DNA from: an uncultured Prevotellaceae bacterium
Lineage (GTDB): Bacteria; Bacteroidota; Bacteroidia; Bacteroidales; Bacteroidaceae
Assembly (NCBI GenBank): GCA_900316975.1
Contig: ONFA01000008.1
Coordinates: 4,164 to 68,163, forward strand
Direction of reading: 5' to 3'
Length of the DNA stretch: 64,000 nucleotides
Part shown: positions 38,938-55,680 of the stretch, piece after piece
Numbering within the stretch: the first letter of the stretch is position 1
Layout of the letters: the number at the start of each line of letters is the position of its first letter
The notes under the pieces: model-generated
The model's database searches: none
What the model was told of the DNA's origin: nothing
Seen by the model: only the letters and a program-made list of their open reading frames with translations
Position numbers and translations under genes: made by a program

Positions 38938-40314
38938 TTAATAAAATATCGTTGTAATGACCAATCCCACGATGGTGCTGACGATGACACTGACAAGACC
39001 TGGCATCATGAAGGAGTGGTTGAGCAGGTACTTGCCAATGACGGTGGTGCCTGAACGGTCAAAGTTCACGGTAGCGATGTCGGACGGATAGTTGGGGATG
39101 AAGAAGTAGCCATAGACGGAAGGGAGCACACCGAGCAACACGGGACCAGGGATGCCCAGCGAGTAAGCCAACGGTAGCATCGAAACCACTACGGCACCCT
39201 GACTGTTGATGAGCACAGACACAGCGAAGAAGGCAATGGAAATCGCCCAAGGATACTGGCTGACAATGCCTTCAAGCCCCTCCTGTATCTCGTCCATATA
39301 GTTGCTGAAATAAGTGTCGGCAAGCCATGCAATGCCATAGATAGCCACCACTGCCACCATGCCTGACTGCCACACAGAACCAGCCACAGCCTTCTTGGGA
39401 CTTGCTTTCGCAAAGATAATCATGGCGGCAGCAGCCATAATCATGACAATCTGGATGATGATGTTCATGCCGATAGGCTTCATCACAGGGTTGCCAGCAT
39501 CATCTAATTTGCCAGAATCGACCACTGGACGGATGTCGCACCCTGCAATCTGGAAGAGCGAGTACAACACGATGATCGCCAAGGCACCAAGGAAGATGAA
39601 GACGGAAATCTTAGCGTTTTTGTCCACCTCCTTATCAAGCAGCGAAGCCGTATCACCATACATATACTCTTTCAACTGAGGGTCAGCCAACCGAGCCTGA
39701 AACTTCGGATCCTTGTCAAGGTCTTTCCCTCGCTTGTAGGAACAAAGGGCAGCGGCAAAGATTCCGCACAGACTAGCAGGAATGGTCACGGCAATCACTT
39801 GCAGGTTGTTGACCTCAAAACCTGCTTCGTTGCTAATAACCACAAACGATGCCACAGCAGCAGCGATGGGCGAGCAGGTGATGCCCACCTGCGAAGCGAC
39901 AGAGGCGACAGCGCAAGGGCGTTCAGGCCGGATGCCCTTCTTCAAGGCGATGTCACAGATGATGGGCATGAGTGTGTACACCACGTGTCCTGTTCCGACC
40001 AGCACTGTGAGGAAGAACGTACACAGCGGCGCCAAGAAGGTGATATGTGCCGGATGTTTTCGCAGCAGTTTCTCCGCCAACTGGATGAGCCAATCCATGC
40101 CACCTGCCGCCTGCATGATGCCGGCACAAGTGACAGCAGCCACAATAATGTAAATCACGTCAGTGGGAGGATTACCCGGCTTCATACCAAAGCCCAACAC
40201 CAAAATGGCAAGACCGATGCCCGAGATGGCACCCAATGCCAAACTGCCATAGCGTGAGCCCACATAAAGCGCACCCAACACAATGAGCAGTTGCAAGATC
40301 ATGACAAAATCCAT
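38938..40314 (-). CDS. dcuB: Anaerobic C4-dicarboxylate transporter, DcuB-like
   Basis: LAEKLLRKHPAHITFLAPLCTFFLTVLVGTGHVVYTLMPIICDIALKKGIRPERP closely parallels E. coli DcuB. Confidence 0.9.
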   Translation of the reverse strand: MDFVMILQLLIVLGALYVGSRYGSLALGAISGIGLAILVLGFGMKPGNPPTDVIYIIVAAVTCAGIMQAAGGMDWLIQLAEKLLRKHPAHITFLAPLCTFFLTVLVGTGHVVYTLMPIICDIALKKGIRPERPCAVASVASQVGITCSPIAAAVASFVVISNEAGFEVNNLQVIAVTIPASLCGIFAAALCSYKRGKDLDKDPKFQARLADPQLKEYMYGDTASLLDKEVDKNAKISVFIFLGALAIIVLYSLFQIAGCDIRPVVDSGKLDDAGNPVMKPIGMNIIIQIVMIMAAAAMIIFAKASPKKAVAGSVWQSGMVAVVAIYGIAWLADTYFSNYMDEIQEGLEGIVSQYPWAISIAFFAVSVLINSQGAVVVSMLPLAYSLGIPGPVLLGVLPSVYGYFFIPNYPSDIATVNFDRSGTTVIGKYLLNHSFMMPGLVSVIVSTIVGLVITTIFY

Positions 40315-40530: not shown

Positions 40531-41541
40531 ATGTCACCATCCAACCAACAAGCGAGTGTAAGATTAACGGGAGTGAGTGCCCTACTCCATTTCCTCGTCG
40601 ATGGACTCTGCATCTGTTGTTTGTACCTCGCAACGGTAGGCAAAATGGACATCGTAACGACTTACGTGACCTACAATGTGTTGGCATTCCTGACACAACC
40701 CCTCACCGGGTGGTGGGCTGACTGGATGAGGCAGAGACATTGGATGTTGCTCGGTTCGGTGCTGTTACTGACGTTGGGTGTGGCAGCATGTCAACTGTCA
40801 ACCATCAACGAACAGTTCATCATGCCTACCGCAGTTTTGCTGGGTATCGGCAATTCGCTCTTTCACGTATGGGGCGGCAAGCAAGTGGCAGTCAACACAG
40901 GAAACGACATCCGCGCATTGGGGGTGTTCGTCTCAACTGGTGCATTCGGACTTGCGATCGGAGGGGTATTGGCATCGTGGTCCCTGTTGTATGTGTTTCT
41001 GCTGAGCATCTGTGTATTGGCGATACAGACCCTTCAGGCACAGACCCTCCCCTCACCCTCCCTACAGGGAGGGAGTAGTATCTCTATTAATGAAAAAACA
41101 AGTGAGCAAGGTAACCACCCCCTCCCTGTAGGGAGGGTGAGGGGAGGGTCTGTGGTGAGGGGAGGGTCTATTATCCTTCTCATCATGCTCGTCGTGGCAG
41201 GACGCTCTTTTACAGGTGAGGCATTCACGACGGGCATCACGAAAAATGCCATGCTCATCTTGTTGTTGGGAGCCACCTCGATGGCTGGAAAGATGGCTGG
41301 CGGATGGCTTGCCAAAAGCATGGGGATATGGAAAGCCTTGCTGCTGATGGTGGTGGGGACGATTCTCTGCTTCCTCGGCAAGGACCTGCACATCGCTGTG
41401 ATGCTCACGGGACTTTTCCTCATCAACTGCACCATGCCTGTCACCCTCTATTGGGCGAACACGCTGTTAAAAGGGTATGAGGGATTAGCGTTCGGACTGT
41501 TGGCGGCAGCATTGATACCAGGGTATCTGCTCGCCACATGA
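40531..41541 (+). CDS. Multi-pass membrane protein of unknown family carrying an in-frame palindromic insert
   Basis: ORF 40396..41541 trimmed to the ATG 20 nt downstream of the -7 box. About 9-10 TM helices. Motifs LHFLVDGLC and GNSLFHVWGG. The central loop is encoded by the 41041-41168 repeat. Confidence 0.7.
   Translation: MSPSNQQASVRLTGVSALLHFLVDGLCICCLYLATVGKMDIVTTYVTYNVLAFLTQPLTGWWADWMRQRHWMLLGSVLLLTLGVAACQLSTINEQFIMPTAVLLGIGNSLFHVWGGKQVAVNTGNDIRALGVFVSTGAFGLAIGGVLASWSLLYVFLLSICVLAIQTLQAQTLPSPSLQGGSSISINEKTSEQGNHPLPVGRVRGGSVVRGGSIILLIMLVVAGRSFTGEAFTTGITKNAMLILLLGATSMAGKMAGGWLAKSMGIWKALLLMVVGTILCFLGKDLHIAVMLTGLFLINCTMPVTLYWANTLLKGYEGLAFGLLAAALIPGYLLAT
41041..41168. repeat. Perfect 33-bp inverted repeat (46-bp spacer) plus partial direct duplication, inside a CDS
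   Basis: CAGACCCTCCCCTCACCCTCCCTACAGGGAGGG at 41041-41073 is the exact reverse complement of 41120-41152. GTGAGGGGAGGGTCT is repeated at 41137-41151 and 41154-41168. The G4 motif GGGAGGGTGAGGGGAGGG is at 41131-41148. Confidence 0.9.
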
Positions 41542-41563: not shown

Positions 41564-41956
41564 ATGTTCCACCTCTTAGACATCGCCCACCCCTTGTCGT
41601 TTCCTTTGGAGGATGACTACGAACTGATGGTGCAACTGCTCACTGCACTCATTCCCACCATCCTCATCGAGTTGGGAGTGTTGTGGCTGTTGAAGGAACA
41701 GCGCAAGAAGGTGCTGCTATCGTCCATTGCCGTCAACGTGCTGACCAACGTGCCGCTGAACCTGTATGTGCTGCTGGTCAACGACAGCATGGGAGACATC
41801 CTCATTGGCGAGGTAGCGGTTTTCCTTGTCGAAGCCGTATGGTACTGGTGCTTCACGCATCGCGTCAAGCAAGCCGTTATTTACAGTTTCTTGTGCAATG
41901 CCATCAGTTTCCTCATCGGATTGCTCCTGCAACTCCTATACCAATTCTTCATGTAA
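41564..41956 (+). CDS. Small multi-pass membrane protein (130 aa)
   Basis: Starts 23 nt after the upstream stop. 3-4 TM helices. N-terminus MFHLLDIAHP. Confidence 0.55.
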   Translation: MFHLLDIAHPLSFPLEDDYELMVQLLTALIPTILIELGVLWLLKEQRKKVLLSSIAVNVLTNVPLNLYVLLVNDSMGDILIGEVAVFLVEAVWYWCFTHRVKQAVIYSFLCNAISFLIGLLLQLLYQFFM

Positions 41957-54189: not shown

Positions 54190-55680
54190 CTAATCCTCGT
54201 TGGTATTCTCCTCTTCCAGAGAGTGGAACGAACTACCGTCAAAGCAGTGTGTACACACTTGGCACTTCTCAAGTCCTATCGCATTCACAATGGTTTCCAA
54301 CGAGGAGAACTTGAGGCTGTCGAGGTTGAGTCGATGGGCTATCTCTGCCACCATCGCCTTGTATTCGGGTGAATCGGTTGTGGCATATGCTTTGATGCGC
54401 TCAGCAGGCACCTCCACATTCTGTGCCGTCTGTGCATCCGCCAGCATGGTGGCTGTACGCGAATGCGTCTCGAGGTCTTTGATGACACGGCGTGTGATCA
54501 ACTCCAATTCCGACTTGCTGGCAGAGAAGTTCACGAACGGACAAGCATAAATCAGTGGAGGACAGGCAATACGCATGTGTACCTCCTTCGCTCCCAAATC
54601 TTTCAGCACCTTCGTGTTCTCTCTCAACTGTGTACCTCTCACGATGGAATCATCGCAGAAAAGACAACGCTTACCCTTCAGCATATCTTTGTTGGGAATG
54701 AGTTTCATTTTCGCCACGAGGTTGCGCACTTCCTGACTTGGTGGCATGAACGAGCGAGGCCATGTAGGCGTGTATTTGCTGATGCCACGCTGATAAGGGA
54801 TGTGACTGCCGGCACTGTAACCCACAGCCATGCCGATGCCCGAATCGGGGATGCCACCCACACAATCCACTTCCGTTTCGTCCGTTTCGCCCATCACGCG
54901 TCCCGTCTCGAAGCGTACCTCTTCCACGTTCTTTCCTTCATACGACGAGGTGGGGAACCCATAATATATCCAAAGGAAGGAACAAATCTGCATCTTCTTG
55001 TTGGGCTTGCGCAACTGCTCCATGCCATCGGCACGCAGACGCACAATCTCGCCTGGACCCACAAAGTATGTCGTTTCGTAACCCAAATTAGGGAATGCCG
55101 TGTTCTCGCTGGTAGCAGCCATCGCGCCCTCCTTCTTGCCAATGATGATAGGTGTACGTCCCCAAGCATCGCGGGCAGCAATGATGCCATCCTCCGTCAG
55201 CAACAACATGGAGCAGGAACCTTTCACAACCTTGAACACATTCTCAATACCTTCCACAAATGTCTTGCCCTGCACAATCAACACACCAATCAACTCCGTC
55301 GGATTGATCTTTCCTGACGAGAACTCAGACAGGTACATGTTCTCGTCCAAGAGTTTGGAGGCAATCTCCTCCATATTGTTGATTTTCGCCACCGTCACAA
55401 TCGCGAAACGCCCCAAGTGACTGTTGAACAGCATCGGTTGTGCATCGGTGTCACTGATGATACCAATGCCCGACTCGCCTTCAAACTTAGACAGTTCCGC
55501 CTCAAAACGTGTACGAAAATAAGTGCTCTCCAGATTATGGATGGCGCGGTAGAACCCCTTTTCCTTACTATACGAAGCCATACCTCCGCGTCGTGTACCG
55601 AGGTGTGACTGATAGTCTGTGCCATAGAAAAGGTCTGCCGCACATTTTTCCATTGATACGGTCCCAAAAAAACCTCCCAT
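54190..55680 (-). CDS. Amidophosphoribosyltransferase-like protein (PurF family) lacking the N-terminal Cys nucleophile
   Basis: PRPP motif CLFCDDSIVRGTQL. The N-terminus is MGGFFG where PurF has MCGI(V/F)G. LFYGTDYQSHLGTRRGG parallels YYGL..LQHRGQEG. Cys-rich tail CQVCTHCFDGSS. The TTG at 55710 lies in the -7 box. Confidence 0.8.
   Translation of the reverse strand: MGGFFGTVSMEKCAADLFYGTDYQSHLGTRRGGMASYSKEKGFYRAIHNLESTYFRTRFEAELSKFEGESGIGIISDTDAQPMLFNSHLGRFAIVTVAKINNMEEIASKLLDENMYLSEFSSGKINPTELIGVLIVQGKTFVEGIENVFKVVKGSCSMLLLTEDGIIAARDAWGRTPIIIGKKEGAMAATSENTAFPNLGYETTYFVGPGEIVRLRADGMEQLRKPNKKMQICSFLWIYYGFPTSSYEGKNVEEVRFETGRVMGETDETEVDCVGGIPDSGIGMAVGYSAGSHIPYQRGISKYTPTWPRSFMPPSQEVRNLVAKMKLIPNKDMLKGKRCLFCDDSIVRGTQLRENTKVLKDLGAKEVHMRIACPPLIYACPFVNFSASKSELELITRRVIKDLETHSRTATMLADAQTAQNVEVPAERIKAYATTDSPEYKAMVAEIAHRLNLDSLKFSSLETIVNAIGLEKCQVCTHCFDGSSFHSLEEENTNED

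Follow-up and report, generated by a model that had tools for sequence, protein, structure and literature searches.

Background

The Rickettsia palindromic elements are, in the account of Ogata et al. 2000 relayed by a 2024 review (PMC10969869), multi-copy repeats of ~100-150 bp that lie in frame in many unrelated, often housekeeping, genes and encode a conserved peptide in each family. That review treats in-frame palindromic repeats in protein genes as a speciality of Rickettsia and calls the same elsewhere conceivable. Here we examine a 64,000-nt stretch of DNA from an uncultured Prevotellaceae bacterium (contig ONFA01000008.1, assembly GCA_900316975.1; hereafter the window, in whose coordinates positions are given), in which a long inverted repeat lies in frame within the gene for a permease resembling those of the major facilitator superfamily (MFS). 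We find that this segment is very probably one copy of a dispersed, non-autonomous palindromic family of Prevotellaceae, similar to REPINs and to MITEs (miniature transposable elements with inverted repeats), and that it is probably carried as a tolerated in-frame passenger in the manner of the Rickettsia elements.

Three further kinds of bacterial repeat are relevant to this comparison. The superfamilies of repetitive extragenic palindromic (REP) sequences are described in PMC3733652 as bearing a GTAG or CGTC tag at one end. The bacterial MITEs that we compared are Correia/NEMIS, ERIC, RUP, BOX and QMITE1 (reviewed in PMC10969869), and a survey placed ~90% of conserved MITEs in intergenic DNA (PMC11602168). 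Finally, the Prevotella intermedia/nigrescens-specific repeat, PINSR, is described as having no terminal inverted repeats and as distinct from MITEs (PMC4755523).

A dispersed palindromic family in Prevotellaceae

The two arms of the repeat in the window are exact 33-nt reverse complements that enclose 46 nt (Table 1), both in the window sequence itself and in the output of a repeat finder. In order to sample the family we scanned a single genome for each species and picked loci by an exact 20-mer taken from the right arm. We obtained at least 98 matching DNA stretches, almost all of them from rumen or gut Prevotellaceae/Bacteroidales; the matches listed include ~44 different assemblies, with several copies per genome on different contigs (e.g. 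RGIG3623 and RUG192). Inverted pairs in other genomes repeat the exact 88-nt offset seen in the window, and a blastn search with 41039-41154 against these loci recovered full copies of 110-116 nt that have the same spacer and are 83-93% identical. An alignment of eleven copies revealed invariant ends (AGACCC...GGGTCT) bounding a 110-nt core with the conserved spacer GTATCTCTGCnAATGAGnAAACAAACGAACAAGGTAACCAC, while the flanks are unrelated. The few 20-mer matches in GC-rich non-Bacteroidales genomes have no hairpin context and look like chance occurrences.

The arm and the whole 110-116-nt unit thus recur in many Prevotellaceae genomes, both in unrelated genes and in intergenic DNA. An earlier note on this DNA, made from the sequence alone, had read the repeat either as a MITE/REP-type element domesticated inside a coding sequence or as a structured switch; its observation is confirmed, and the first option, insofar as it invokes a MITE/REP-type element lying in frame in a coding sequence, is supported. 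The search it proposed for further copies of the arm finds them in related genomes, both by scan and by blastn, but not in the 64-kb window, which contains none.

Partner arms display compensatory stem variants of the local hairpin: CCCTCCCT/AGGGAGGG was found 50 times, CTCCCCCT/AGGGGGAG 17 times, and TTTCCCCT/AGGGGAAA and others were also recovered, in a search that demanded perfect hairpins and was hence biased toward finding them. The dinucleotide at the hairpin center changes in one arm independently of the other. Given these compensatory stems and independently varying centers, the arm hairpin looks like a conserved structural unit, as in REP sequences.

Beside the copies with short spacers there is a sister class with longer, AT-rich spacers of 123-212 nt, in which the left arm is often the variant GCTCCCCCT-nnn-AGGGGGAG. 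These long-spacer copies hold stop codons and are intergenic, often lying tight against gene ends. Neither blastn searches of plasmid and phage collections nor an exact 20-mer search of IMG/VR viral contigs recovered a match to the element, Rfam gave none at gathering scores, and our literature search, which included the exact DNA motif, returned no description of this palindromic family. In one of the sampled loci (L013, ~690-900) we additionally observed a tandem array of approximately five 30-nt units, each with the G-rich tail GGGGAGGGTGAGGGGAGGGTCTTCTTTCCA, inside an extended open frame of the opposite strand; this expansion of the terminal unit far exceeds that in the window.

In-frame residence in unrelated protein genes

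The short-spacer copies lie mostly inside open reading frames (ORFs): 22 of 38 paired arm matches have an open frame of at least 150 nt on both sides, and in most short-spacer copies that frame extends for hundreds of nucleotides past the element in both directions. Pfam domains flank the insert or are split by it in RsgA, RecG, DnaG, a type IA topoisomerase (Topoisom_bac), an ABC_tran ATPase, an NtrC-like regulator, UbiE, RlmN and a GT2 glycosyltransferase, with inserts occurring at domain linkers (between RsgA_N and the GTPase domain, or between receiver and AAA+ domains) and also inside domains (ABC_tran, Topoisom_bac and DNAG_N). A search of 50% cluster representatives with the 43-aa element peptide added a Mur ligase, a SpoU methylase, an RNase H1 linker, an ArsP permease and GSCFA as further hosts; with 10 matches at E<=1e-3 and low statistical power, this search names hosts and is no census. 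The same peptide had no match in an index of 5.8 billion proteins, where one candidate shared words with it.

In the in-frame copies orientation and frame are nearly always the same, giving a common peptide of approximately QTLPSPSLQGGS-ISANEETNEQGNH-LPVGRVRGGS with the general form (Q/E/K)TLPSPSLQGGS-ISANEETNEQGNH-LPVGRVRGGS. The family consensus, read by eye, is free of stops in two of six frames, and the short-spacer elements have lengths of 98, 110, 113, 122 and 134 nt, which differ from each other by multiples of three. This constancy of orientation and frame, taken together with the small number of stop-free frames and the lengths in multiples of three, indicates selection on the translated copies.

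It is unlikely that the occurrences in multiple genes are assembly chimeras, since each time a single host gene is matched by the two flanks. As a separate matter, three metagenome proteins (P0244, P0250 and P0247) join two unrelated genes exactly at the element, the pairs being RsgA_N with a SpoU methylase, RsgA_N with a DAP epimerase and a methyltransferase N-terminus with a helicase tail. Most likely these are assembly chimeras caused by the repeat, though possibly they reflect real recombination between copies. We also noted a methyltransferase-like ORF with PG_1098_Fer and THUMP-like domains (L087, 736-2166) that contains two in-frame copies of the element ~420 nt apart.

Filled and empty sites in RsgA

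RsgA offers two sites at which the movement of the element can be followed. The first separates the N-terminal OB domain from the GTPase domain and falls between residues 61 and 75 of PDB chain 1u0l_A. Some lineages have the element there, some have nothing, and in others a different palindrome-like peptide takes its place. The second lies inside the GTPase domain and is filled in one gene (L110) and empty in another (L088), the two being otherwise nearly identical in the alignment. Given this near-identity outside the insert, the gain or loss of this copy is recent. The insert amounts to 165 nt net (55 codons), includes a duplicated left unit and replaces ~10 nt of the target.

In the RsgA orthologues P0132, P0135, P0136 and P0182, the position of the element holds a different insert of similar size (e.g. 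PLCPEGISPSMGR...GGQKGSG; alignment A2, columns ~78-125). This insert may belong to some other palindromic family or be a copy in advanced decay, and its presence suggests either a permissive hot spot or the replacement of one element by another.

Architecture of the copy in the window

The features of the copy in the window are collected in Table 1. The earlier note's description of the repeat proved accurate for the 33-nt arms and the gap between them, for the palindrome within each arm, and for a G-quadruplex (G4) motif on the + strand with its complement in the left arm. With two mismatches allowed, the arms grow to 41 nt (41039-41079 and 41114-41154; 95%), and in 100 dinucleotide-preserving shuffles of the window the 33-mer count was 0. 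The internal palindromes are CCCTCCCT-AC-AGGGAGGG in the left arm and CCCTCCCT-GT-AGGGAGGG in the right. Each arm accordingly consists of a REP-like G+C hairpin with an 8-bp stem and a 14-nt C-rich or G-rich tail, the two arms being inverted around the spacer and making up ~60% of the element length; the termini can be written as AGCAGACCC...GGGTCTGCT. The four-tract G4 motif GGGAGGGTGAGGGGAGGG, defined by a regular expression for four tracts of at least three G with loops of 1-7 nt, occurs once on each strand, and these two are the sole matches in the 64 kb.

The direct duplication that had been reported to follow the repeat is present, but its length is 16 nt at a period of 18 rather than 15 nt (GGTGAGGGGAGGGTCT, 41136-41151 and 41154-41169). 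The left terminus, which the earlier note had passed over, is likewise partly duplicated (ACAGACCCT at 41025-41033 and 41040-41048, period 15), and comparable terminal part-duplications are seen in L041, L081 and the RsgA protein P0121.

Table 1. Positions of the palindromic element, its parts and its host gene in the window
Feature	Position	Strand	Details	Basis
Host gene, MFS-like permease	40531..41541	+	336 aa, start MSPSNQQ	ORF, Pfam, homologues
Partial tandem duplication of left terminus	41025..41039	+	15 nt = 5 codons, QTLQA	Sequence and repeat finder
Element-derived coding segment	41026..41169	+	48 codons, Q166 to S213, QTLQAQTLPSPSLQGGSSISINEKTSEQGNHPLPVGRVRGGSVVRGGS; forms central loop	Translations
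Full inverted repeat	41039-41154			Repeat finder
Core palindromic element	41042..41151	+	110 nt, AGACCC to GGGTCT (family-consensus definition)	Family alignment, blastn, nhmmer profile E 2e-39
Left arm, C-rich	41041..41073	+	14-nt tail AGACCCTCCCCTCA (41042-41055), local hairpin 41056-41073, G4 on - strand 41045-41062	
Spacer	41074..41119	+	46 nt, encodes SSISINEKTSEQGNH; conserved within in-frame subfamily	Alignment A3, element list
Right arm, G-rich	41120..41152	+	Local hairpin 41120-41137, tail TGAGGGGAGGGTCT (41138-41151), G4 41131-41148	
Two tandem 18-nt terminal units	41136..41171	+	GGTGAGGGGAGGGTCTGT, GGTGAGGGGAGGGTCTAT; copy number strain-variable	Repeat finder

The predicted fold of the element is very stable relative to shuffled controls, both as DNA (-53.9 kcal/mol, z -9.3) and as RNA (-103.6 kcal/mol, z -10.7). 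In an energy model that includes G4 structures, the right arm alone prefers the G4 (-20.2 kcal/mol) to the hairpin (-16.5 kcal/mol), whereas in the whole element the hairpin (-103.6) beats the G4. It is hence possible that an isolated G-rich arm could fold as a G4 and that the full hairpin would outcompete it when both arms are present.

At a relaxed threshold (E<=1) Rfam aligns 41038-41156 with eukaryotic miRNA-precursor models (mir-627, mir-3158, mir-188 and others, E down to 2e-11); all these matches are far under gathering scores and reflect the generic shape of a long perfect hairpin. Two antisense ORFs of 136 and 109 aa (41034-41444 and 41062-41391, - strand) cross the element and overlap the permease gene. 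They arise since the C- and G-tract arms are free of stops in most frames, and are most likely spurious.

The permease gene and its element-derived loop

The automatic ORF call for the host gene begins upstream at a TTG (40396), but near-identical homologues point to 40531 as the probable true start. The protein matches MFS_1 in Pfam with E 3.4e-7, under the gathering score, and has 1594 homologues; a sequence search of PDB with it returned no match. A near-identical gene is present in the metagenome-assembled genome GCA_016293385.1, of the same species. The + strand frame is open through the element and its peptide is exactly that quoted in the earlier note, the predicted tryptic peptides of the element-derived segment being TSEQGNHPLPVGR and ETNEQGNHPLPVGR. 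An AlphaFold model built on alignment A1, of low confidence (mean pLDDT 49.6) and used for its secondary structure alone, contains five helices, a coil at 173-208 that corresponds to the element, and five further helices, with the coil between helices 132-172 and 209-232. This agrees with the suggestion that the element forms a loop between two transmembrane bundles.

In the alignment of orthologues that had been proposed as a check, those at ~52-57% identity have a shorter, unrelated loop of ~24 aa in this position. At 69-70% identity, two orthologues have the element at the same site: in L113 its arms are ~8% changed and the right tail is still at consensus, and in L006 the arms match at only ~60-80%. 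A decayed element with its center deleted is found at this site in L010. Since orthologues down to ~69% identity share it in various stages of decay, the element appears to be old at the permease locus, where it would have been vertically inherited and tolerated, and it is a hot spot for indels.

Close relatives differ in their terminal units. Near-identical strain alleles encode proteins of 330, 336 or 342 aa, differing by one 18-nt unit (6 codons) more or less on either arm: the right arm has one unit in L008 and L009 and two in the window and in L001-L005, and L007 has an additional second unit on the left arm, a mirror of the right-hand duplication. Amino-acid replacements and differences of ±6 aa are tolerated in the element peptide among strains. 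In the L112 allele, a 40-nt deletion takes out both G-rich tails and frameshifts the gene, on a 43-kb contig found in three samples. The spacer has the identical orientation in 13 of 13 alleles examined; inverted, it would read TAA TAA stops.

The neighbors of the permease gene are patatin genes, small ORFs that match no family and a DcuA/DcuB gene. The latter, upstream (38938-40314, - strand), codes for a C4-dicarboxylate transporter and is complete both in the window and in L009, at 458 aa each, as well as in L006, at 481 aa. Among L001-L005, L007, L008 and L010, however, several near-identical strains have a DcuA/DcuB call that is only a fragment of 98-104 aa beside a porin-like gene, which looks like a strain-level rearrangement or deletion next to the permease gene. 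Directly downstream (41564-41956, + strand) is a small hydrophobic ORF of 130 aa with no Pfam match, which adjoins the permease in all loci and is fused to it in the orthologues P0013 and P0014 (464 and 488 aa). The permease and this ORF are probably parts of one functional unit.

Proposed origin and alternatives

We propose that the element inserts at random with respect to frame, and that selection would leave those copies that present a hydrophilic open frame at a permissive loop or domain linker; the short-spacer subfamily (110 nt plus multiples of three) has one stop-free frame, whose product is a hydrophilic, Pro-, Ser- and Gly-rich peptide of 37 aa. The surviving copies would then be translated as part of the host protein, as with the Rickettsia palindromic elements. 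As the position is shared among orthologues, a copy probably entered the central loop of the permease in the ancestor of a species group of Prevotella-like bacteria from pig and ruminant guts, and would have been inherited since as a tolerated passenger, its peptide being a flexible loop to which no separate function would fall. The G-rich terminal unit is unstable, with ±18 nt on either arm and the frameshifting 40-nt deletion in some strains, and both kinds of change may arise by slippage or stalling at the G-tracts and hairpin. The hairpin-per-arm design, the ends and the lack of a target duplication suggest that the mover may be a single-strand, hairpin-recognizing transposase of the RAYT (REP-associated tyrosine transposase) or IS200/IS605 type.

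Several observations weigh against this account. Target-site duplications are absent from the flanks of the 11 aligned copies and from the filled and empty RsgA sites. A clean empty-site junction was not found either, ~10 nt of target being replaced at the second RsgA site. At the permease locus and at the first RsgA site, the ancestral loop is not retained. A tblastn search of 740 kb of loci and the window with three approximate Y1 transposase queries, a weak test in view of the queries and of RAYT genes being single-copy, gave no significant match, and translation through the element is inferred from the conservation of frame. Moreover, the arms in the window equal the family consensus even though the insertion appears to predate the divergence from the 69-70% orthologues, a state for which plain neutral decay does not account. 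Neither a repeat search nor an nhmmer profile detected a second copy, even a diverged one, in the window, and the evidence for multiple copies therefore comes from related genomes and not from the source genome. Since the sample was drawn by an exact 20-mer, part of the conservation seen in the G-rich tail follows from the sampling itself. As to the candidate mover, the one weak Y1 match (E 0.17, 54385-54648) falls in a PurF-like amidotransferase ORF, and among the 98 loci, in which no dedicated search for one was made, no arm pair was noticed to enclose a transposase-sized ORF.

A bolder extension of the passenger account, which we entertain tentatively and regard as doubtful, is that this is the first sighting of a large, still active, 'protein-invading' palindrome family of Prevotellaceae, a free-living culturable counterpart of the Rickettsia elements. 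Such a family might repeatedly invade essential genes (such as rsgA, dnaG, recG, topB and rlmN), replace short target stretches rather than duplicate them, keep its arms at consensus for long periods by conversion between arms or copies, and move by a mechanism not yet described, via hairpin or G4 recognition on single-stranded DNA.

The option that the element arrived as a selfish sequence and has since become a domesticated module, with its peptide or its DNA or RNA structure now selected for a benefit to the permease or the cell, appears improbable to us. It could draw on the arms in the window being identical to the consensus and to each other even though the insertion is shared with 69-70% orthologues, and on the loss of the ancestral loop of the distant orthologues, by which the element now is the loop. 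Likewise, the gene is ~93% identical at the DNA level to that of L009 (protein 91% identical), and in the arms 65 of 66 positions agree; but this excess is marginal, with ~4.7 changes expected and 1 observed (Poisson estimate, P ~0.05), and we therefore make no claim of selection. Furthermore, L006 and L010 have let the element decay or have partly deleted it while keeping the gene, strains tolerate changes of ±6 aa and replacements in the peptide, and one lineage has the frameshifting deletion. The data fit tolerance rather than an acquired function, and do not demonstrate the domestication named in the earlier note.

The other option raised there, a structured switch for translation or recombination, we consider slightly less probable again. 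Here translation of the permease would be controlled by the hairpin or the G4, formed in either mRNA or DNA, or the arms would invert the 46-nt spacer as an on/off phase switch. The very stable predicted hairpin (RNA z -10.7, DNA z -9.3), the canonical G4 motif and the differences in G-rich unit length among strains are in line with such a device, and an inversion of the spacer would add two stop codons and turn the gene off. However, the same element occurs in dozens of other, unrelated genes, and also between genes, and is thus not gene-specific, and the spacer has one orientation in all 13 alleles. The indels are mostly multiples of 18 nt that keep the frame and hence do not constitute an on/off tract, the full-element hairpin outcompetes the G4 in the energy model, and no invertase or recombinase gene adjoins the element in the ORF list or in family searches of its neighbors in the window.

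An origin in place, by inverted duplication of the ancestral loop or template switching (quasi-palindrome correction) without any mobile DNA, was suspected from the loop peptides of the 70% orthologues, which are homologous to the spacer and right arm; template switching between the arms could also yield the mirror duplication in L007. This origin is highly improbable and is contradicted by the genome scan and full-length matches: other genomes have the whole unit, spacer included, in unrelated genes and at 83-93% identity, and what the 70% orthologues carry makes better sense as the same element in decay. Template switching may still keep the arms matched within an element but does not explain its origin.

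Implications

The passenger account, if correct, extends Rickettsia-like behavior to Prevotellaceae, a dominant and culturable group of the gut and rumen, with dozens of host genes and one recent gain or loss. It thereby offers an experimentally accessible system in which to study the tolerance of proteins for selfish DNA and the means by which such elements spread to new sites. The element is a source of polymorphism in loop length and of gene inactivation by deletion, and its combination of G-tracts and hairpins in coding DNA provides a substrate for questions on the stalling of replication and translation. There is also a practical warning: the repeat seems to yield chimeric genes in metagenome assemblies and will distort alignments of orthologues. 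The interest is moderate to good for the family and modest for the permease gene, for which the consequence is a longer and variable cytoplasmic loop.

Comparison with known systems

PINSR shares with the present family that it is a dispersed repeat limited to a Prevotella lineage, but by its description it is a different element, having no terminal inverted repeats and not being reported as an in-frame protein insert.

With the bacterial MITEs the family has in common its small size (<~800 bp, the core here being 110-116 nt), the lack of a transposase gene (the only ORF through the window element is the host gene), terminal inverted repeats, many copies across related genomes and the occasional in-frame fusion with host ORFs. 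It differs in that no target-site duplication and no parental insertion sequence with the same ends were found in the sampled loci, and in that in-frame residence is the rule and not the exception among the sampled copies of the short subfamily.

The closest structural match is the REPIN, a doublet of REP hairpins. As in the RAYT-mobilized REP/REPIN sequences of Pseudomonas and E. coli, the unit is a short, imperfect, G+C-rich palindrome with compensatory stem variants (20-40 nt in REPs; here an 8-bp stem per arm with a variable center), two inverted units form a larger hairpin of ~110 nt, target-site duplications are absent and many copies lie just beyond gene ends. In contrast, REPs are extragenic by definition, whereas the short-spacer subfamily of Prevotellaceae is mainly intragenic and in open frames; and the ends (AGACCC and GGGTCT) bear no GTAG or CGTC tag, GTAG being found only at the variable hairpin center of the window copy.

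In behavior, the closest match is provided by the Rickettsia palindromic elements. Both are palindromic and multi-copy, reside in frame in unrelated genes, encode a conserved peptide, would fit with the function of the host protein and have no transposase of their own known; the likeness is one of behavior, with no sequence relationship expected, and Rfam has no family for the Rickettsia elements. The hosts differ, an obligate intracellular alphaproteobacterium on the one hand and Bacteroidota anaerobes of the gut and rumen on the other, as does the design, which here includes G/C-tract-rich arms with G4 motifs, a REP-like hairpin in each arm and a sister subfamily with long AT-rich spacers that is mostly intergenic. 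The element in the window very probably belongs to a protein-coding palindromic repeat family, of a kind already known for such behavior, here in Bacteroidota.

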